Notes under the pieces: model-generated | The model's database searches: none | What the model was told of the DNA's origin: nothing | What the model saw: the letters and a program-made list of their open reading frames with translations, nothing else | Translations under genes and position numbers: made by a program | Part shown: piece by piece, positions 1 through 49,087 of the stretch | Layout of the letters: every line of letters begins with the position of its first letter | Numbering within the stretch: the stretch's first letter is position 1 | Assembly (NCBI GenBank): GCA_027923505.1 | Contig: BROI01000023.1 | Location: 186,001-250,000, forward strand | DNA length: 64,000 bases | Direction: 5' to 3' | Origin: Mayamaea pseudoterrestris | Taxonomy: Eukaryota

Positions 1-1493
1 CAGACCCTTGAATACAACAAACATGCAATTTAACATTGAATGGGACTGATAGTCTTGTCATTTTGGGTGTGGAACCCATCACCATGCCAGGAGACTCCGC
101 ACATTCAACAAATGGTTGAATGTGCCAGCAGGGTCCCCTTTTTGGCTACAGGAATCATCAGCATTGCGTGCCGAGCCCTCCAATCCCTTTCATTTCATGT
201 TTGTTGACATGATGGGCTAGGAATGTGGTTACATGCACCTCAGTATCCATCACCATGGATGCTATTAGTGATACTTGGCAGATCCAAAAACTTGTTGGAT
301 CTGCGAGCCATGCACCTCAGGTGGCAAGTCCAGCTGCCTGAATGGCCCACAGACCCTGGAATACAACAAACATGCAATTCAACAATGAATGGGGCTGATA
401 GTCTTGTCATGTTGGGTGTGGAACCCATCACCATGCCAGGAGGCAACACCGCACAATCAACAAATGGTTGAATGTGCCAACAGTGCCCCCTTTTTGGCTA
501 CAGGGATCATCAGCAATGCGTGCCGAGCCCTCCAATCCCTTTCAATTCATGTTTGTTGACATGATGGGCTAGGAATGTGGTTACATGCACCTCAGTATCC
601 ATCACCATGGATGCTATTGGTGATACGTGGCAGATCCAACAACTTGTTGGATCTGTGAGCCATGCACCTCAGGTGGCAAGTCCAGCTGCCTGAATGGGCC
701 ACAGACCCTGGAATACAACAAACATGCAATTCAACATTGAATGGGACTGATAGTCTTGTCATTTTGGGTGTGGAACCCATCACCATGCCAGGAGACACCG
801 CACATTCAACAAATGGTTGAATGTGCCAGCAGGGTCCCCTTTTTGGCTACAGGGATCATCAGCATTGCGTGCCAAGCCCTCCAATCCCTTTCAATTCATG
901 TTTGTTGACATGATGGGCTTGGAATGTGGTTACATGCACCTCAGTATCCATCACCATGGATGCTATTGGTGATACTTGGCAGATCCAACAACTTGTTGGA
1001 TCTGCGAGCCATGCACCTCAAGTGGCAAGTCTAGCTGCCTGAATGGCCCACAGACCCTGGAATACAACAAACATGCAATTCAACATTGAATGGGACTGAT
1101 AGTCTTGTCATTTTGGGTGTGGAACCCATCACCATGCCAGGAGACTCCGCACCTTTAACAAATTGTTGAATGTGCCAGCAGTGCCCCTTTTTGGCTACAG
1201 GGATCATCACCATTGCGTGCCGAGCCCTCCAATCCCTTTCAATTCATGTTTGTTGACATGATGGGCTAGGAATGTGGTTACATGCACCTCAGTATCCATC
1301 ACCATGGATGCTATTGGTGATACTTGGCAGATCCAACAACTTGTTGGATCTGCCAACCATGCACCTCAAGTGGCAAGTCCAGCTGCCTGAATGGCCCACA
1401 GACCCTGGAATACAACTAACATGCAATTCAATATTGAATGGGACTGGTAGTTTTGTCATTTTGGGTGTGAAACCCATCACCATGCCAGGAGAC
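1..1493. repeat. Tandem satellite, ~349-bp unit, about 4.3 copies, truncated by the window start
   Basis: CAGACCCT(T/G)GAATACAAC recurs at 1, 350, 702, 1051 and 1399; near-identical spurious ORFs at 223 and 1272; strongly CpG-poor. Confidence 0.97.
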
Positions 1494-1669
1494 GCTTCAA
1501 GTTAACGAATGTGGCAAACTTTTTCTAACACTCGAATGCATGGCAGTGGTGCTGCAATTGGATCCAATGACACGTGTGAAGTTGCCAATGTGCTACTACA
1601 TGTTGGCAGAGAGGAGCTGTTAAATAAAGTTTTGCATCAGTAAATATGGATCGATGATTAAAGTAGTGA

Positions 1670-2962: not shown

Positions 2963-3194
2963 TAAAGCACGACGAGATCGTTTACGAGTACCAATGAAAA
3001 CTGCGTCATGAAACTATATGAAACGAGTGCCAGTGTCAATTACGTCACACGGCAGTAGTATGAAACAACTGCAAGTGAAAACTGCGTCACAAGGTTATAG
3101 TATGAAACGACTGCCAGTGAAAACTGCGTCACAAGGCAATAACACGAAATGAGTGCCAGTGAAAACTGCATTTTTTGTACTGACGACTGACGGA
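2963..3194. mobile_element. Dispersed element copy 1: fixed head, ~5 x 42-bp units, fixed tail
   Basis: Head TAAAGCACGACGAGATCGTTTACGAGT and tail TGTACTGACG shared with 23538-23975; unit ~AAGGCAATAGTATGAAACGAGTGCCAGTGAAAACTGCGTCAC. The repeat is seen directly; mobility is inferred. Confidence 0.7.
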
Positions 3195-23537: not shown

Positions 23538-23975
23538 TAAAGCACGACGAGATCGTTTACGAGTGCCAATGAAAACTGCGTCATTAGGCTATATTATGAA
23601 ACGAGTTCCAGTGTCAGTTACGTCAAAGGCAATAGTTTAAAACGGGTGCCAGTGAAAACTGCGTCATAAGGCAATAGTGTGAAACGAGTGCCAGTGAAAA
23701 CAGCGTCACAAGGCAAAAACACGAAACGAGTGCCAGTGAAAACTGCGTCACTAAGCATTGATACGATTCGAGTACCAGTGCACCACGTCACTAGGCAATA
23801 GTATGAAACGAGTGCCAGTGTCAATTACGTCACAAGGCAATAGTATGAAACGAGTGCCAGTGTCAATTACGTCACAAGGCAATAGTATGAAACGGGTGCC
23901 AGTGAAAACTGCGTCATAAGGCAATAGTATGAAACGAGTGCCAGTGAAAACTGCGTCATTTTTGTGTACTGACGG
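23538..23975. mobile_element. Dispersed element copy 2: fixed head, ~10 x 42-bp units, fixed tail
   Basis: Same head and tail as 2963-3194; the 14-aa periodicity (DAVFTGTRFILLPY) in spurious minus ORFs confirms a 42-bp unit. Confidence 0.7.
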
Positions 23976-37469: not shown

Positions 37470-40400
37470 CTCAGCCAGCAGATGCCGTGAGATGCCGTGA
37501 CATTCAATTGCCCAAATAACATGCCATGTATATGCCCAAAGCACACCAGAATGGTGGCAGCTTCATTATTCAGTCTGTGCTACAAGAGGAAATGCCTGGC
37601 TGGTGTCTCAGGGGATGGCAATGTATTTGGTGACAACTTGTCACCAGTCTCAGCCCACAGATGCCGTGACATTCAAACGCCCCTACAGCAAGCCCTGTAG
37701 GTGCCCCAATTACACCAGAATGGTGCCAACATCATTATTCAGGCTGCGCTACAAGATGGTAGGCTTGGCTGGTGTCTCAGGGGATGGCAATGTATTTGGT
37801 GACAACTTGTTACCAGTCTCAGCCCGCCGATGCTGTCACATTTAAACGCCCCCACAGCAAGCCCTGTAGGTGCCCAAATCACACCAGAATGGTGCCAACA
37901 TCATTATTCCGGCTGCGCTACAAGATGGTAGGCTTGGCTGGTGTCTCAGGGGATGGCAATGTATTTGGTGACAACTTGTCACCAGTCTTAGCCCGCAGAT
38001 GCCGTGACATTCAAACGCCCCTAAAGCAAGCCCTGTAGGTTTCCAAATTACACCAGAATGGTGCCAACATCATTATTTAGGCTGCGCTACAAGATGGTAG
38101 GCTTGGCTGGTGTCTCAGGGAATGGCAATGTATTTGGTGACAACTTGTCACAAGTCTCAGCCAACAGATGCCCTGACATTCAAACGCCCCTACAGCAAAC
38201 CCTGTAGGTGCCCAAATTACACCAGAGTGGTACCAACATCATTATTTAGGCTGCGCTACAAGATGGTAGGCTTGGCTGGTGTCTCAGGGGATGGCAATGT
38301 ATTTGGTGACAACTTGTCACCAGTCTCAGCCCGCAGATGCCGTGATATTCAATTGCCCAAATAACATGCCATGTATATGCCCAAAGCACACCAGAATGGT
38401 GCCAACATCATTATGCATATTGCGCTACAAGATGGGTTGCTTGGCTGGTGTCTCAGGGGATGGCAATGTATTTGGTGACAACTTGTCACCAGTCTCAGCC
38501 CGCAGATGCCGTGACATTCAAACGCCCCTACAGCAAGCCCTGTAGGTGCCCAAATTACACCAGAATGGTGCCACCATCATTATTGAGGCTGTGCTACAAG
38601 ATGGTAGTCTTTGCTGGTGTCTCAGGGGATGCCAATGTATTTGGTGACAACTTGTCACCAGTCTCAGCCTGCAGATGCCGTGACATTCAAATGCCCCTAA
38701 AGCAAGCCCTGTAGGTTTCCAAATTACACCAGAATGATGCCAACATCATTGATCTAGCTGCGCTAAAAGATGGTATGCTTGGCTGGTGTCTCAGGGGATG
38801 GCATTGTATTTGGTGACAACTTGTCACCAGTCTCAGCCCACAGATGCCGTGACATTCAAATGCCCCTGCATCAAGCCCTGTAGGTGCCCAAATTACACCA
38901 GAATGGTGCCAACATTATTATTCCAGCTGCGCTACAAGATGTTAGGCTTGGCTGGTGTCTCAGGGGATGGCAATGTATTTGGTGACAACTTGTCACCAGT
39001 CTCAGCCCACAGATGCCGTGACATTCAAACGCCCTACAGCAAGCCCTGTAGGTGCCCAAATTACTCCAGAATGGTGCCAACATCATTTTTCCAGGTGCGC
39101 TACAAGATGGTAGGCTTGGCTGGTGTCTCAGGGGATGGCAATGTATTTGGTGACAACTTGTCACCAGTCTCAGCCCGCAGATGCCGTGACATTCAAACGC
39201 CCCTACAGCAAGCCCTGTAGGTGCCCAAATTACACCAGAATGGTGCCAACATCATTATTTAGGCTGCGCTACAAGATGGTAGGCTTGGCTGGTGTCTCAG
39301 GGGATGGCAATGTATTTGGTGACAACTTGTCACCAGTCTCAGCCCGCAGATGCCGTGACATTCAAATGCCCCTGCATCAAGCCCTGTAGGTGCCCAAATT
39401 ACACCAGAATGGTGCCAACATCATTATTCAGGCTGCGCTACAAAATGGTAGGCTTGGCTGGTGTCTCCGGTGATGGCAATGTATTTGGTGACAACTTGTC
39501 ACCAGTCTCAGCCCGCAGATGCCGTCACATTCAAACGCCCCTACAGCAAGCCCTGTAGGTGCCCCAATTACACCAGAATGGTGCCAACATCATTATTCAG
39601 GCTGCGCTACAAGATGGTAGGCTTGGCTGGTGTCTCAGGGGATGGCAATGTATTTGGTGACAACTTGTCACCAGTCTCAGCCCGCAGATGCCGTGACATT
39701 CAAACGCCCTACAGCAAGCCCTGTAGGTGCCCAAATTACACCAGAATGGTGCCAACATCATTATTCAGGTTGCGCTACAAGATGGTAGGCTTGGCTGGTG
39801 TCTAAGGGGATGGCAATGTATTTGATGACAACTTGTCACCAGTCTCAGCCCGCAGATGCCGTGACATTCAAACGCCCCTACAGCAAACCCTGTAGGTGCC
39901 CAAATTACACCAGAATGGTGCCAAAATCATTTTTTTTACTGCGCTACAAGATGGTAGGCTTGGCTGGTGTCTCAGGGGATGGCAATGTCTTTGGTGACAA
40001 CTTGTCACCAGTCTCAGCCCGCAGATGCCGTGACATTCAAACGCCCCTACAGCAAGCCATGTAGGTGCCCAAATTACACCAGAATGGTGCCAACATCATT
40101 TATCTAGCTGCGCTACATGATGGTAGGCTTGGCTGGTGTCTCAGAGGATGGCAATGTATTTGGTGACAACTTGTCACCAGTCTCAGCCCGCAGATGCCGT
40201 GACATTCAAACGCCCCCACAGCAAGCTCTGTAGGTGCCCAAATCACAACAGAATGGTGCCAACATCATTATTGAGGCTGTGCTACAAGATGGTAGGCTTG
40301 GCTGGTGTCTCAGGGGATGGCAATGTATTTGGTGACAACTTGTCACCAGTCTCAGCCCGCAGATGCTGTCACATTCAAACGCCCCTACAGCAAGCCCTGT

Positions 40401-43400
40401 AGGTGCCCAAATTACACCTGAATGGTGCCAACCCAACATCATTATTCATACTGCGCTACAAGATGGTAGGCTTGGCTGGTGTCTAAGGGGATGGCAATGT
40501 ATTTGGTGACAACTTGTCACCAGTCTCAGCCCGCAGATGCCATCACATTCAAATGCCCCTACAGCAAGCCCTGTTGGTGCCCAAATTACACAAGAATGGT
40601 GCCAACATCATCATTCAGGATGCGCTACAAGATGGTAGGCTTGGCTGGTGTCTCAGGGGATGGCAATGTATTTAGTGACAATTTGTCACCAGTCTCAGCC
40701 CGCAGATGCTGTCACTTTCTAACGCCCCTACAGCAAGCCCTGTAGGTGCCCAAATTATACCAGAATGGTGCCAACATCATTATATAGGCTGCGCTACAAG
40801 ATGGTATGCTTGGCTGGTGTCTCAGGGGATGGCAATGTATTTGGTGACAACTTGTCACCAGTCTCAGCCTGCAGATGCTGTCACATTCAAACGCTCCTAC
40901 AGCAAGCCCTGTAGGTTTCCAAATGACACCAGAATGGTGCCAACATGATTATTCATACTGCGCTATAAGATGGTAGGCTTGGCTGGTGTCTCAGGGGATG
41001 GCAATGTATTTGGTGACAACTTGTCACCAGTCTCAGCCCGCAGATGCCGTGACATTCAAACGCCACTACAGCAAGCCCTGTAGGTGCCCAAACTACACCA
41101 GATTGGTGCCCACATCATTGGGCATACTGCGCTACAAGATGGGATGCCTGGCTGGTGTCTCAGGGGATGGCAATGTATTTGGTGACAACTTGTCACCAGT
41201 CTCAGCCCGCAGATGCCGTGACATTCAAACGCCACTACAGCAAGCCCTGTAGGTGCCCAAATTACACCAGAATGGTGCCAACATCATTAATCAGGCTGAG
41301 CTACAAGATGGTATGCCTAGCTGGTGTCTCAGGGGATGGCAATGTATTTGGTGACAACTTGTCACCAGTCTCAGCCCGCCGATGCTGTCACATTCAAACG
41401 CCCCCACAGCAAGCCCTGTAGGTGCCCAAATCACACCAGAATGGTGCCAACATCATTATTCCGGCTGCGCTACAAGATGGTAGGCTTGGCTGGTGTCTCA
41501 GGGGATGGCAATGTATTTGGTGACAACTTGTCACCAGTCTCAGCCCACAGATGCCGTGACATTCAAACGCCCCTACAGCAAGCCATGTAGGTGCCCAGAT
41601 TACACCAGAATGGTGCCAACATCATTTATCTAGCTGCGCTACAAGATGGTATGCTTGGCTGGTGTCTCAGGGGATGGCAATGTATTTGGTGACAACTTGT
41701 CACCAGTCTCAGACCGCAGATGCCGTGACATTCAAACGCCCCTACAGCAAGCCCTGTAGGTGCCCAAATTACACCAGAATGGTGCCAACATCATTGGAAT
41801 AGGCTGCGCTACAAGATGGTAGGCTTGGCTGGTGTCTCAGGGGATGGCAATGTATTTGGTGACAACTTGTCACCAGTCTCAGCCTGCATGCCGTCACATT
41901 TAAACACCCCTACAGCAAGCCCTGTAGGTGACCAAATTACACCAGAATGGTGCCAATATCATTATGCCAGCTGCGGTACAAGTTGGTAGGCTTGGCTGGT
42001 GTCTCAGGGGATAGCAACGTATTTGGTGACAACTTGTCACCAGTCTCAGCCTGCAGATGCCGAGACGTTCAAACGCCCCTAAGCAAGCCCTGTAGGTGCC
42101 CCAATTACACCAGAATGGTGCCAACATCATTATTCAGGCTGCGCTACAAGATGGTATGCCTAGCTGGTGTCTTTGGGGATGGCAATGTGATTTATGACAG
42201 CTTGCCACCAATCTCAGCCAACAGATGCCATGACATTCAAATGCCCCTACAGCAAGCCCTGTAGGTGCCCAAATTACACCAAAATGGTGCCAACATCATT
42301 ATTCAGGTGTGCTACAAGATGGTAGGCTTTGCTGGTGTCTCAGCGGATGGCAATGTATTTGGTGACAACTTGTCACCAGTCTCAGCCCGCAAATGCCGTG
42401 ACATTCAAACACCCCTACAGCAAGCCCTGCAGGTTCCCAAATTACACCAGAATGGTGCCTTTATCATTATTCCGGCTGCGCTACAAGATGGTAGGCTTGG
42501 CTGGTGTCTCAGGGGATGGCAATGTATTTGGTGACAACTTGTCACCAGTCACAACCCGCAGATGCCGTGACATTCAAACACCCCTACAGCAAGCCCTGTA
42601 GGTGCCCAAATTACACCAAAATGGTGCCGACATCATTATTCATGCTGTGCTACAAGATAGATGGCTTTGCTGGTGTCTCAGGGGATGGCAATGTATTTGG
42701 TGACAACTTGTCACCAATCTCAGCCCACAGATGCTGTGACATTCAAACGCTCCTTCAGCAAGCCCTGTAGGTGCTCAAATTTCACCAGAATGGTGCCAAC
42801 ACCATTACAGTATTCCGACTGCGCCACAAGATGGTAGGCTTGGCTGGTATCTCAGTGGACGGCAATGTATTTGGTGACAACTTGTCACCAGTCTCAACCC
42901 ACAGATGCCGTGACATTCAAAACGCCCCTACAGCAAGCCCTGTAGGTGCTCAAATTACACCAAAATGGTTCCAACATCATTATTCATACTGCGCTACAAG
43001 ATGCTAGGCTTGGCTGGTGTCTTTGGGGATGGCAATGTATTTGGTGACAACTTGTCACCAGTCTCAGCCCACAGATGCCGTGACATTCAAACGCCCCTAC
43101 AGCAAGCCCGGTAGGTGCCCAAATTACACCAGAATGGTGCCAACATCATTATTCAGGCTGTGCTACAAGATGGGAGGCTTTGCTGGTGTCTCAGGGGATG
43201 GCAATGTATTTGATGACAACTTGTCACCAGTCTCAGCCCGCAGATGCCGAGACATTCAAACGCCCCTACAGCAAGCCCTGTAGGTGCCCAAATTACACCA
43301 GAATGGTGCCAACATCATTATTCAGGCTGCGCTACAAGATGGTATGCCTAGCTGGTGTCTTTGGGGATGGCAATGTATTTGGTGACAACTGGTCACCAGT

Positions 43401-46400
43401 CTCAGCCTGCAGATGCCGTCACATTCAAACGCCCCTACAGCAAGCCCTGTAGGTGCCCAAATTACACCAGAATGGTGCCAACATCATTTTCTAGCTGTGC
43501 TACAAGATGATAGGCTTGGCTGGTGTCTCAGGGGATGGCAATGTATTTGATGACAACTTGTCACCAGTCTCAGCCCGCAGATGCCGTGACATTCAAACGC
43601 CCCTACAGCAAGCCCTGTAGGTGCCCAAATTACACCAGAATGGTGCCAACATCATTATTCAGGCTGCGCTACAAGATGGTATGCCTAGCTGGTGTCTTTG
43701 GGGATGGCAATATATTTGGTGACAACTTGTCACCAGTATCAGCCCGTGGATGCTGTGACATTCAAACGCCCCTACAGCAAGCCCTGTAGGTGCTCAAATT
43801 ACACCAGAATGGTTCCAACATCATTATTCATACTGCGCTACAAGATGGTAGGCTTGGCTGGTGTCTCAGGGGATGGCAATGTATTTGGTGACAACTTGTC
43901 ACCAGTCTCAGCCCGCAGATGCCGTGACATTCAAACGCCCCTACAGCAAGCCCTGTAGGTGCCCCAATTACACCAGAATGGTGCCAACATCATTCTACAA
44001 TCTGCGCTACAAGATGATATGTCAAGCAGGTGTTCTTGTAGACTGTAATGTGATTGGTGACAAGTTGTCACAAGTCTCAGCCGAAGATGCCCTGTCATTC
44101 AATGGCTGGTGTCTCAGGTGATGGCAATGTATTTGGTGACAACTTGTCACCAGTCTCAGCCCGCAGATGCCGTCACATTCAAACGCCCCTACAGCAAGCC
44201 CTGTAGGTGCCCCAATTACACCAGAATGGTGCCAACATCATTATTCAGGCTGCGCTACAAGATGGTAGGCTTGGCTGGTGTCTCAGGGGATGGCAATGTA
44301 TTTGGTGACAACTTGTCACCAGTCTCAGCCCGCAGATGCCGTGACATTCAAACGCCCTACAGCAAGCCCTGTAGGTGCCCAAATTACACCAGAATGGTGC
44401 CAACATCATTATTCAGGTTGCGCTACAAGATGGTAGGCTTGGCTGGTGTCTAAGGGGATGGCAATGTATTTGATGACAACTTGTCACCAGTCTCAGCCCG
44501 CAGATGCCGTGACATTCAAACGCCCCTACAGCAAACCCTGTAGGTGCCCAAATTACACCAGAATGGTGCCAAAATCATTTTTTTTACTGCGCTACAAGAT
44601 GGTAGGCTTGGCTGGTGTCTCAGGGGATGGCAATGTCTTTGGTGACAACTTGTCACCAGTCTCAGCCCGCAGATGCCGTGACATTCAAACGCCCCTACAG
44701 CAAGCCATGTAGGTGCCCAAATTACACCAGAATGGTGCCAACATCATTTATCTAGCTGCGCTACATGATGGTAGGCTTGGCTGGTGTCTCAGAGGATGGC
44801 AATGTATTTGGTGACAACTTGTCACCAGTCTCAGCCCGCAGATGCCGTGACATTCAAACGCCCCCACAGCAAGCTCTGTAGGTGCCCAAATCACAACAGA
44901 ATGGTGCCAACATCATTATTGAGGCTGTGCTACAAGATGGTAGGCTTGGCTGGTGTCTCAGGGGATGGCAATGTATTTGGTGACAACTTGTCACCAGTCT
45001 CAGCCCGCAGATGCTGTCACATTCAAACGCCCCTACAGCAAGCCCTGTAGGTGCCCAAATTACACCTGAATGGTGCCAACCCAACATCATTATTCATACT
45101 GCGCTACAAGATGGTAGGCTTGGCTGGTGTCTAAGGGGATGGCAATGTATTTGGTGACAACTTGTCACCAGTCTCAGCCCGCAGATGCCATCACATTCAA
45201 ATGCCCCTACAGCAAGCCCTGTTGGTGCCCAAATTACACAAGAATGGTGCCAACATCATCATTCAGGATGCGCTACAAGATGGTAGGCTTGGCTGGTGTC
45301 TCAGGGGATGGCAATGTATTTAGTGACAATTTGTCACCAGTCTCAGCCCGCAGATGCTGTCACTTTCTAACGCCCCTACAGCAAGCCCTGTAGGTGCCCA
45401 AATTATACCAGAATGGTGCCAACATCATTATATAGGCTGCGCTACAAGATGGTATGCTTGGCTGGTGTCTCAGGGGATGGCAATGTATTTGGTGACAACT
45501 TGTCACCAGTCTCAGCCTGCAGATGCTGTCACATTCAAACGCTCCTACAGCAAGCCCTGTAGGTTTCCAAATGACACCAGAATGGTGCCAACATGATTAT
45601 TCATACTGCGCTATAAGATGGTAGGCTTGGCTGGTGTCTCAGGGGATGGCAATGTATTTGGTGACAACTTGTCACCAGTCTCAGCCCGCAGATGCCGTGA
45701 CATTCAAACGCCACTACAGCAAGCCCTGTAGGTGCCCAAACTACACCAGATTGGTGCCCACATCATTGGGCATACTGCGCTACAAGATGGGATGCCTGGC
45801 TGGTGTCTCAGGGGATGGCAATGTATTTGGTGACAACTTGTCACCAGTCTCAGCCCGCAGATGCCGTGACATTCAAACGCCACTACAGCAAGCCCTGTAG
45901 GTGCCCAAATTACACCAGAATGGTGCCAACATCATTAATCAGGCTGAGCTACAAGATGGTATGCCTAGCTGGTGTCTCAGGGGATGGCAATGTATTTGGT
46001 GACAACTTGTCACCAGTCTCAGCCCGCCGATGCTGTCACATTCAAACGCCCCCACAGCAAGCCCTGTAGGTGCCCAAATCACACCAGAATGGTGCCAACA
46101 TCATTATTCCGGCTGCGCTACAAGATGGTAGGCTTGGCTGGTGTCTCAGGGGATGGCAATGTATTTGGTGACAACTTGTCACCAGTCTCAGCCCACAGAT
46201 GCCGTGACATTCAAACGCCCCTACAGCAAGCCATGTAGGTGCCCAGATTACACCAGAATGGTGCCAACATCATTTATCTAGCTGCGCTACAAGATGGTAT
46301 GCTTGGCTGGTGTCTCAGGGGATGGCAATGTATTTGGTGACAACTTGTCACCAGTCTCAGACCGCAGATGCCGTGACATTCAAACGCCCCTACAGCAAGC

Positions 46401-49087
46401 CCTGTAGGTGCCCAAATTACACCAGAATGGTGCCAACATCATTGGAATAGGCTGCGCTACAAGATGGTAGGCTTGGCTGGTGTCTCAGGGGATGGCAATG
46501 TATTTGGTGACAACTTGTCACCAGTCTCAGCCTGCATGCCGTCACATTTAAACACCCCTACAGCAAGCCCTGTAGGTGACCAAATTACACCAGAATGGTG
46601 CCAATATCATTATGCCAGCTGCGGTACAAGTTGGTAGGCTTGGCTGGTGTCTCAGGGGATAGCAACGTATTTGGTGACAACTTGTCACCAGTCTCAGCCT
46701 GCAGATGCCGAGACGTTCAAACGCCCCTAAGCAAGCCCTGTAGGTGCCCCAATTACACCAGAATGGTGCCAACATCATTATTCAGGCTGCGCTACAAGAT
46801 GGTATGCCTAGCTGGTGTCTTTGGGGATGGCAATGTGATTTATGACAGCTTGCCACCAATCTCAGCCAACAGATGCCATGACATTCAAATGCCCCTACAG
46901 CAAGCCCTGTAGGTGCCCAAATTACACCAAAATGGTGCCAACATCATTATTCAGGTGTGCTACAAGATGGTAGGCTTTGCTGGTGTCTCAGCGGATGGCA
47001 ATGTATTTGGTGACAACTTGTCACCAGTCTCAGCCCGCAAATGCCGTGACATTCAAACACCCCTACAGCAAGCCCTGCAGGTTCCCAAATTACACCAGAA
47101 TGGTGCCTTTATCATTATTCCGGCTGCGCTACAAGATGGTAGGCTTGGCTGGTGTCTCAGGGGATGGCAATGTATTTGGTGACAACTTGTCACCAGTCAC
47201 AACCCGCAGATGCCGTGACATTCAAACACCCCTACAGCAAGCCCTGTAGGTGCCCAAATTACACCAAAATGGTGCCGACATCATTATTCATGCTGTGCTA
47301 CAAGATAGATGGCTTTGCTGGTGTCTCAGGGGATGGCAATGTATTTGGTGACAACTTGTCACCAATCTCAGCCCACAGATGCTGTGACATTCAAACGCTC
47401 CTTCAGCAAGCCCTGTAGGTGCTCAAATTTCACCAGAATGGTGCCAACACCATTACAGTATTCCGACTGCGCCACAAGATGGTAGGCTTGGCTGGTATCT
47501 CAGTGGACGGCAATGTATTTGGTGACAACTTGTCACCAGTCTCAACCCACAGATGCCGTGACATTCAAAACGCCCCTACAGCAAGCCCTGTAGGTGCTCA
47601 AATTACACCAAAATGGTTCCAACATCATTATTCATACTGCGCTACAAGATGCTAGGCTTGGCTGGTGTCTTTGGGGATGGCAATGTATTTGGTGACAACT
47701 TGTCACCAGTCTCAGCCCACAGATGCCGTGACATTCAAACGCCCCTACAGCAAGCCCGGTAGGTGCCCAAATTACACCAGAATGGTGCCAACATCATTAT
47801 TCAGGCTGTGCTACAAGATGGGAGGCTTTGCTGGTGTCTCAGGGGATGGCAATGTATTTGATGACAACTTGTCACCAGTCTCAGCCCGCAGATGCCGAGA
47901 CATTCAAACGCCCCTACAGCAAGCCCTGTAGGTGCCCAAATTACACCAGAATGGTGCCAACATCATTATTCAGGCTGCGCTACAAGATGGTATGCCTAGC
48001 TGGTGTCTTTGGGGATGGCAATGTATTTGGTGACAACTGGTCACCAGTCTCAGCCTGCAGATGCCGTCACATTCAAACGCCCCTACAGCAAGCCCTGTAG
48101 GTGCCCAAATTACACCAGAATGGTGCCAACATCATTTTCTAGCTGTGCTACAAGATGATAGGCTTGGCTGGTGTCTCAGGGGATGGCAATGTATTTGATG
48201 ACAACTTGTCACCAGTCTCAGCCCGCAGATGCCGTGACATTCAAACGCCCCTACAGCAAGCCCTGTAGGTGCCCAAATTACACCAGAATGGTGCCAACAT
48301 CATTATTCAGGCTGCGCTACAAGATGGTATGCCTAGCTGGTGTCTTTGGGGATGGCAATATATTTGGTGACAACTTGTCACCAGTATCAGCCCGTGGATG
48401 CTGTGACATTCAAACGCCCCTACAGCAAGCCCTGTAGGTGCTCAAATTACACCAGAATGGTTCCAACATCATTATTCATACTGCGCTACAAGATGGTAGG
48501 CTTGGCTGGTGTCTCAGGGGATGGCAATGTATTTGGTGACAACTTGTCACCAGTCTCAGCCCGCAGATGCCGTGACATTCAAACGCCCCTACAGCAAGCC
48601 CTGTAGGTGCCCCAATTACACCAGAATGGTGCCAACATCATTCTACAATCTGCGCTACAAGATGATATGTCAAGCAGGTGTTCTTGTAGACTGTAATGTG
48701 ATTGGTGACAAGTTGTCACAAGTCTCAGCCGAAGATGCCCTGTCATTCAATTGCCCATTTGTTAAGCAAGTCCATCACCATTTCATACCAGGATGGTGCC
48801 AACCTCCTAAATTTGACTGCTCTACCAAGTGAAATGCATGGCTGGTGCCTCATGATGCTGCAATGCCATTGGTGAGAACTTGCCACCAGTCCTAGCCAGC
48901 AGCAGAAATGACTTTAACAGCCCATTCTAAGAGCCATGTCTATGACCAATAGACACAAGGATGCTGCCAAAATCTTATCAAGGCTGTGCAACAAGATACC
49001 TGGCTGGTGCCTCATGATGCTGCAATGCCGCTTGCTGAGGAGTTCTTCCCAGTCAGCAGCCATGACTTTGAACAGCCCATTTCTAGG
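37470..49087. repeat. Satellite array of ~68 x 169-bp monomers with diverged terminal units
   Basis: Consensus GGCTGGTGTCTCAGGGGATGGCAATGTATTTGGTGACAACTTGTCACCAGTCTCAGCCCGCAGATGCCGTGACATTCAAACGCCCCTACAGCAAGCCCTGTAGGTGCCCAAATTACACCAGAATGGTGCCAACATCATTATTCAGGCTGCGCTACAAGATGGTAGGCTT (169 nt); spurious ORF starts spaced 169 bp. Confidence 0.99.
39455..48750. repeat. 4,648-bp direct tandem duplication within the satellite (39455-44102 and 44103-48750)
   Basis: ORF pairs offset by exactly 4648 with the same translation apart from the boundaries (39798/44446, 40206/44854, 42771/47419, 43861/48509); private indels such as CCAACCCAAC recur. Confidence 0.95.

Follow-up and report, generated by a model that had tools for sequence, protein, structure and literature searches.

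Conserved boxes and dyad symmetries have been described in satellite DNAs of animals and plants, where their cause is debated; chromatin sites at regular spacing are a known kind of feature of such DNA. For Meloidogyne chitwoodi and Meloidogyne fallax, the accessible text of Mestrovic et al (2013; PMC3694981) describes a satellite library with two motifs, Box 1 and Box 2, which are 17–20 bp long, present in all families, obligatory at junctions and not described there as dyads. The CenH3-bound repeats of Meloidogyne incognita combine divergent monomers with one short 19-bp box per unit; according to the available portion of the report (Despot-Slade et al, 2021; PMC8097292), this box shows complete conservation from monomer to monomer, and ChIP links it to CenH3. 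The satellites treated by Kasinathan and Henikoff (2018; PMC5889037) are, in the sections accessible, centromeric, of nucleosome length and equipped with short dyad symmetries (<10 bp) able to form hairpins or cruciforms. Mapped diatom centromeres, as given in the accessible part of the source (Diner et al, 10.1101/096016), are low in GC and without repeats. No description of a conserved palindrome in a diatom satellite came up in a literature search of incomplete coverage, outside which lay most subscription papers and supplements.

We analysed a window of 64,000 nucleotides, the contig stretch 186001–250000 of a 30.6-Mb diatom genome in 41 contigs, which holds arrays of two satellites with units of 349 and 169 bp. 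Set against the available text on M. chitwoodi/fallax (PMC3694981), the diatom repeats are alike in forming a library of divergent satellites, in having a short motif in unlike monomers, in their complex arrays and in a family junction at the motif. They differ in that this motif is 9 bp long, is found in 3 of 10 families rather than in all or most divergent ones, and occurs at about one junction type in two dozen rather than obligatorily, and in that the conserved unit is a family-specific palindrome. With the M. incognita repeats, as far as that report is accessible (PMC8097292), they have divergent monomers and one conserved box per unit in common, but here just 9 bp are shared, and the arrays lie at many places per contig. 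The likeness to the satellites of Kasinathan and Henikoff (PMC5889037, in part) consists in nucleosome-length units and hairpin-capable dyads, whereas the diatom units have one dominant dyad each, with 9–14-bp arms and measured conservation, and nothing centromeric was seen. Array GC is about 50%, unlike the low-GC, repeat-free mapped diatom centromeres described in the accessible part of 10.1101/096016. By analogy, the Meloidogyne box-bearing library and the Kasinathan and Henikoff dyad satellites together may serve as the closest working likeness.

Satellite families and the shared 9-bp centre

The arrays and their surroundings (~0.7 Mb) yielded ten satellite families (169, 349, 181, 352, 174, 371, 175/176/183, 350, 179 and 172), a lower bound from a sample biased to arrays matched by the queries used. 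Their units, of 169–186 bp or dimers of that size, stand head to tail in multi-kb arrays at many loci, as expected for satellite DNA; they are classed as non-coding on the basis of unit lengths that are not multiples of 3 and arrays without a long ORF. All families are CpG-poor (CpG 0.05–0.49 of expectation), and they adjoin one another in composite blocks between ordinary genes. Several separate arrays were found per contig (for example on C7, C10, C6 and C23), rather than the one main block per chromosome of a centromere-type satellite. Long dyads occur in the 169 and 349 families only. The 352-bp (L020 5557–10000) and 371-bp (L026 4–3959) families are diverged direct dimers of ~176 and ~185 bp without long palindromes. 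An Rfam scan of window positions 1–1600 gave no family match (best 19.2 bits vs a gathering score of 55.6).

Pairwise, core-anchored and profile tests detected no homology between families except of 175 with 176. Between 169 and 349, nothing significant was found outside the core by pairwise, core-anchored, consensus or nhmmer profile comparison, and the best homology score, with the core included, reached z 2.4 (4/300). The core-anchored test is a weak one, in which the window's known 349 half-pair itself scores just z 1.4.

The right end of a 349-bp satellite array occupies 1–1511 (+ strand), the array start lying left of the window. Its unit is a diverged direct dimer of 170 + 179 bp with one palindrome, here called A and B (palindromes are given without strand), at the same place in each half; a reading as an inverted dimer was weaker than the direct one and was rejected. 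The unit palindrome is GCAGATCCAACAA-C-TTGTTGGATCTGC, and a typical A with 13-bp arms lies at 979–1005. In the last full copy, A is extended to a perfect palindrome at 1324–1356, with 16-nt arms (1324–1339 and 1341–1356) around a single C and the family form as its inner 27 bp (1327–1353). The initial annotation had correctly reported this 33-bp extension, which is present in 1 of 201 sites matching A; 15-bp arms were found in one site (L012, one base away from the 33-bp form) and 13–14-bp arms in 90. The perfect 33-bp form is a one-copy accident. In the other half-unit, A has its homologue in palindrome B, which lies at 800–826 and also at 99–125, 451–477 and 1149–1175, with its stems kept and a centre unlike that of A.

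The 169-bp satellite array, of about 66 units, extends over 37490–49054 (+ strand; TRF 37490–48750, with a weak tail to about 49054), and both its ends are degenerate. Its consensus carries the 19-bp palindrome TGGTGACAA-C-TTGTCACCA once per unit, a representative copy being at 38473–38491. The 9-bp core common to both satellites, ACAA-C-TTGT, lies in the 349 array at 1336–1344, with further copies at 639–647 and 988–996, and is mutated in the 349 copy centred at 294. As a 9-mer (ACAACTTGT), it occurs 64 times in the window, 3 times in the 349 array and 61 times in the 169 array, against a shuffle mean of 0.88. The claim that two dissimilar satellites have this centre in common held up: ACAA-C-TTGT is the centre of the longest palindrome in both, and the palindrome length in both window consensuses lies above shuffles (0/100 each). 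For a pair picked after the fact, the chance of one 9-bp core in two odd palindromes of such composition is 1/185–1/508, and that of precisely this centre 1/274–1/483. The coincidence is real and unlikely, although sharing of a 9-mer is in itself common among the satellite families (many pairs) and only the central position is unusual. Identity of the single unpaired base applies to the usual state, C, and not to the window copies at 44060 and 48708 or to old 169 copies, which have G (old-type copies at 44055–44073 and 48703–48721); since G is C read on the opposite strand, these represent the same core.

Genome-wide, the 9-mer has 10,716 copies vs 341 for a reversed control, and 7,799 of them are the perfect 169 palindrome. 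It was found in 3 of the 10 families (169, 349 and 181), and the 172-bp family has no such 9-mer in common with others. The 9-mer of the 181 family, which was itself located by searching for the core, is matched by 1 in 300 shuffles. Pairing there ends at 4 bp, 118 of 381 copies have the core unaltered and with its most frequent flanks, the core is absent from the 180-bp subfamily, and in 181 it shows neither conservation (p = 0.6–0.97) nor a variability trough; this abundant family has no palindrome. Maintenance of the core across repeat families, as the initial annotation had proposed along with a scan of the genome's other tandem repeats, is not supported: seven families lack it, and the 181 core is unpaired beyond 4 bp and unconserved.

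Variation in the 169 and 349 palindromes

Of all 19-bp windows in the 169 unit, the one that varies least has its start exactly at the palindrome, and none of 2000 permutations was as deep (857 distinct copies). With CG and TA sites left out, the ratio of palindrome to remaining variants is 0.62 for private variants, 0.20 for those in 2–3 copies and 0.05 for those in more than 3 copies of a locus. This trough has sharp edges and spans 19–20 bp, not 9. Base context and CG and TA sites were ruled out as its cause, as the trough stays with them accounted for; trinucleotide context predicts none (expected rate 0.97 vs 1.05). By exact genome-wide count, the palindrome exceeds control 19-mers (5,721 and 3,814), and it is the top 169 19-mer in the sampled loci (860, median 508). 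In short-read contigs from run X1, which may be the source strain yet is independent of the assembly, variation of at least 1% was found across 38436–38536 at 1 of 19 palindrome sites vs 25 of 82 others (p = 0.017, sites counted by hand). Read depth peaks at the palindrome, but this peak is confounded with the middle of the stretch and was left out of the argument. A second hairpin in the 169 unit, with 7-bp arms and a 6-nt loop, shows neither conservation nor a trough. As single strands, the hairpins are stable in folding (-7.8 to -19.2 kcal/mol). Old 169 copies have a central G and longer arms, both perfected forms of an outer pair are present among them, and one (L139) has the mirrored centre AGAA-C-TTCT.

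For the 349 satellite, column variability was compared over 11 subfamily consensuses, between which 166 of 265 ordinary columns are variable. The arms of A vary in 4 of 18 columns (p = 9e-4) and those of B in 7 of 18 (p = 0.04), the latter count being inflated by a TRF gap over the right arm of B in the L014 consensus. The core of A is variable in 3 of 9 columns, and 59 of 310 windows do as well; the centre of B, at 6 of 9, is its worst-kept part. Within arrays, B is conserved (p = 3e-6 for variants in 2–3 copies) and A is not significantly so (p = 0.14–0.32). In 26 of 30 loci, at 71–100% unit identity, the core is what most copies of A have; B has it in 1 of 30 (L131, ACAA-G-TTGT) and in the other loci reads ACAA-x-TGGT, ACCA-x-TGGT or further variants. 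Because B reads ACAA-G-TTGT in L131, the core was probably present in both ancestral halves and drifted in one. What persists in the 349 palindromes is the stems, not the core.

In both families, then, a low-variability block exists within the monomer and is formed by the family-specific palindrome. Families 352, 174 and 371 had too few copies (23–32) for variability profiles. The initial annotation had held that symmetry and core are both maintained and had suggested measuring conservation by position. Symmetry is constrained, as seen in the 169 trough and the stems of A and B, while the core is not singled out from the palindrome around it and in the 349 family is no better kept than the arms.

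Explanations of the dyads and their centre

Our best explanation, to which we give about an even chance, is that family-specific dyads, one per nucleosome-length unit, are chromatin sites filtered as wholes, and that the shared centre is a relic of common origin or exchange. The filtering of whole dyads is observed; binding or placement in a linker is probable, and we infer binding, phasing and the origin of the core from the sequence. The starting point is a library of at least ten non-coding, CpG-poor satellites with nucleosome-length units, two families of which are set apart by one long dyad per unit. Changes in the 169 palindrome are rarer than elsewhere and hardly ever reach several copies, and the 349 stems are kept between subfamilies while the centre of B drifts. 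Each dyad would act as a putative chromatin landmark, either as the binding site of a factor that is symmetric or reads structure, or through a position in the linker; 169 - 147 leaves 22 bp and 349/2 - 147 leaves 27.5 bp, values close to the 19- and 27-bp dyads. Arrays may thereby be phased at one nucleosome per unit, with units whose dyad is broken being poorly propagated. The 9-bp centre would be a relic, once present in both halves of the ancestral 349 monomer, that passed to or from the 169 family through distant common ancestry or through short-patch exchange between abutting arrays, and it would be carried along inside constrained palindromes without itself being the recognised element. 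This relic origin is provisional, as there is no 169/349 homology outside the core and the homology test is of limited power. Against the explanation as a whole stand the lack of significant conservation of A within arrays, the persistence of the core as the majority state of A, and the eight families that spread without a long dyad.

Alternatively, the palindromes may be constrained and their identical centre a coincidence of two dyads born independently in CA/TG-rich, CG- and TA-poor DNA. We consider this unlikely. The absence of flank or profile homology between 169 and 349 fits it, as do a composition that raises the chance to 1/185, the frequency of 9- and 10-mers in common among families, and the choice of the pair after the fact from some 240 windows of the genome. 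However, only two families have long dyads, so that few comparisons were possible, both dyads have 1-nt centres, and a third family has the same 9-mer (1/300 shuffles), though one found by searching for it.

A site for a homodimeric protein had been among the functions suggested initially. One such protein might read ACAA-S-TTGT in several families in the manner of a CENP-B box or a Meloidogyne box, the arms being secondary. The excess of genomic copies over the reversed control, the presence of the core in three abundant families, its place as the majority state of A, its strong conservation in 169 and one inter-family junction at the core all agree with this. Yet 7,799 of the 10,716 copies are one family's perfect palindrome, the core is unconserved in 181 and missing from its 180-bp subfamily, it is no better kept than the arms in A and the worst-kept part of B, the 169 trough covers 19–20 bp instead of 9, and seven families have no core, which makes the proposal quite improbable. 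A broader version, which we rate just as doubtful, would have a putative factor read one dyad per nucleosome through ACAA-S-TTGT and symmetry in several unrelated families, phase more than 1 Mb of heterochromatin, favour intact units and set Copia insertion sites, the core being convergent or captured. If true, this would be a CENP-B-box-like system in a lineage whose mapped centromeres are without repeats.

The dyads might also have no function, with template switching, which copies arm onto arm, keeping them perfect and molecular drive accounting for all else. According to the accessible part of PMC3820800, template switches are an established route of quasi-palindrome correction; A and B differ by mirrored changes, and old 169 variants show both the mirrored core change of L139 and the two perfected forms of the outer pair. 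Such a process should give mirrored doubles about as often as reversions. At the level of loci, mirrored doubles and single-arm variants instead number 1 vs 126 in 169, 2 vs 169 in A and 0 vs 124 in B (3 vs 419 in total), although mirrored differences do occur between old lineages. As compensatory changes are too rare (1/127), arm-to-arm repair does not explain the 169 trough; given enough time, template switching may create symmetry, but its frequency falls far short of what a deficit of 40–95% would need, and we regard this explanation as very unlikely. In Chlamydomonas, palindromes are only slightly under-represented near new mutations, going by the available portion of PMC8383909, a deficit far smaller than the 169 trough. 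A lower mutation rate, masked by assembly errors in the private class, and a filter at the level of copies both fit the trough, and the two are not separable because that class includes such errors.

Breakpoints bear on a further function suggested initially, a recombination or replication signal. Phase jumps within families were not enriched at the palindromes, with 5 of 40 ends at that of 169 (4.5 expected), 7 and 6 of 52 at A and B (4.0 expected; p = 0.1 and 0.2) and 3 of 78 at the 181 core (3.9 expected). Array ends have no fixed phase and no shared terminus. Between families, a 181-to-169 junction falls at a shared GACAACTTGT and recurs in L042, L044, L046 and L049, probably as copies of a single event; some two dozen further junction types, as judged by eye, are located away from the core or have it on one side only. 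The 181 unit shares a block of ~25 bp with the minus strand of 169, just before the 181 core (at most 1/400 shuffles, in one among many segment-family comparisons); the 180-bp consensus was used here, and an old-181 consensus of 4 hybrid copies was discarded. At L044 2096–4285, a 181 block sits inside a 169 array with 169-unit positions 79–100, palindrome included, on both sides, and at L033 5161–5162 a 349 array stops one base past the centre of A and joins a 169 unit in the loop of its second hairpin. Families do exchange sequence at the motif, though not as a rule. That the core is a break, recombination or replication signal for array amplification and shuffling is extremely unlikely: the L042-type, L044 and L033 junctions and the stable single-strand hairpins speak for it, but phase jumps are flat at all sites, the core is on both sides in one of about two dozen inter-family junction types, arrays end at varying phases, a palindrome is missing from the abundant 181 family, and a break site repaired from its neighbours should lose rather than keep sequence.

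Insertions and repeats in and around the arrays

Ty1/copia elements (RVT_2) with 5-bp target duplications lie inside the arrays. Four LTR-end patterns gave 276 matches (54, 98, 80 and 44), the last pattern letter losing about a quarter of the ends; 60 matches picked by eye as possible satellite flanks were mapped together with the ends in sampled loci. After collapse by family, orientation and position, 37 events remained in the 169 unit, with L078 placed by eye with its partner L095, L041 position 96 merged with 97, and L041 position 135, L080, L118 and L126 dropped as unmapped. Thirteen of these 37 independent insertions lie 10–19 bp from the palindrome centre vs 4.4 expected (p = 2e-4, for a window chosen afterwards), and a second group lies at 45–55 bp on both sides. 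A single insertion, into a copy whose palindrome is altered, lies inside the palindrome vs 4.2 expected (p = 0.07). Corrected by scanning, the clustering has p = 0.012, or 0.06 when the 29 distinct positions are each counted once. Of the mirror axes, 86 is best, and axis 85 ranks 7 of 169, but 23 of 169 on distinct positions; a mirror test of left sites with right partners gave p = 0.013. Copia elements thus weakly tend to insert beside rather than in the 169 palindrome, and roughly mirror-wise.

The insertion pattern is a hint that chromatin is phased with the palindrome as its centre. Should the palindrome be the linker, the outer group would lie about 35 bp from the nucleosome dyad placed opposite it, which is comparable to the foamy-virus intasome, for which a preference for phased nucleosomes at SHL 3.5 is given in the accessible part of PMC6744463; the comparison is of Copia with a retrovirus and uses an assumed nucleosome position. 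A nucleosome dyad placed on the palindrome fits the insertion spacing about as well as a palindrome in the linker.

With ~7,800 perfect copies, trough edges that match the palindrome, few mirrored changes and flanking insertions, the 169 family is an unusually clean case, in which the question of 'selection, protection or drive' can be put to the test in a small eukaryote that grows in culture; its palindrome offers a 19-bp pull-down probe. More of the weight lies with the trough of this family than with the shared 9-bp core, which is the weaker part.

The last bases of one Copia LTR end are ACTTGTCA, an 8-bp word also contained in the 169 palindrome (L011 8944–8951, L044 5958–5965), and all three LTR families end in TG..CA-type words like the inner part of the palindrome. 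This likeness is either chance or a sign that the dyad arose when an LTR end folded back. Tandem repeats borne by Helitrons, Helentrons or MITEs have shared terminal modules and fixed ends around their arrays. Such an origin was rejected here, with array ends at scattered phases and shared flanks that are inserted Copia (61 stretches).

Several minor features accompany the arrays. A light-harvesting protein gene, one of those from which the genome is taken to be a diatom's, lies at 1670–2269 of the window, and near it the stretch 2236–2400 is 86–100% alike to inserts in satellite arrays (L031 1356–1918, L029 5920–6451, L058 2170–3118) and is probably a small mobile element or solo LTR, judging by this likeness. 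A dispersed 42-bp minisatellite family is intergenic and away from the large arrays (window 3017–3169 and 23559–23959; L028 9251–9582; L034 1667–1977), and a 37-bp minisatellite at L013 96–513 stands directly ahead of the 181 and 349 blocks that run into the window. L021 and L023 (C32 45000–54400, C15 713500–723000) have a 349 array and 3 kb of flank in common at 95% identity, as allelic haplotigs or a duplication, so that some copy counts are not independent. Within the 169 array, 44103–48750 reproduces the order of unit variants and the spacings of 39455–44102, down to the old-type end unit, 4,648 bp further on; this is a segmental duplication within the array or an assembly artefact. The 169 19-mer had 2 matches in IMG/VR, taken as chance. 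No RNA run is among the datasets listed as containing the 169 unit (window 38398–38566). The unit is found in leaf-litter, rhizosphere and soil metagenomes (runs X7–X20), X7 and X13 covering it at low depth, and the family therefore exists in wild populations.
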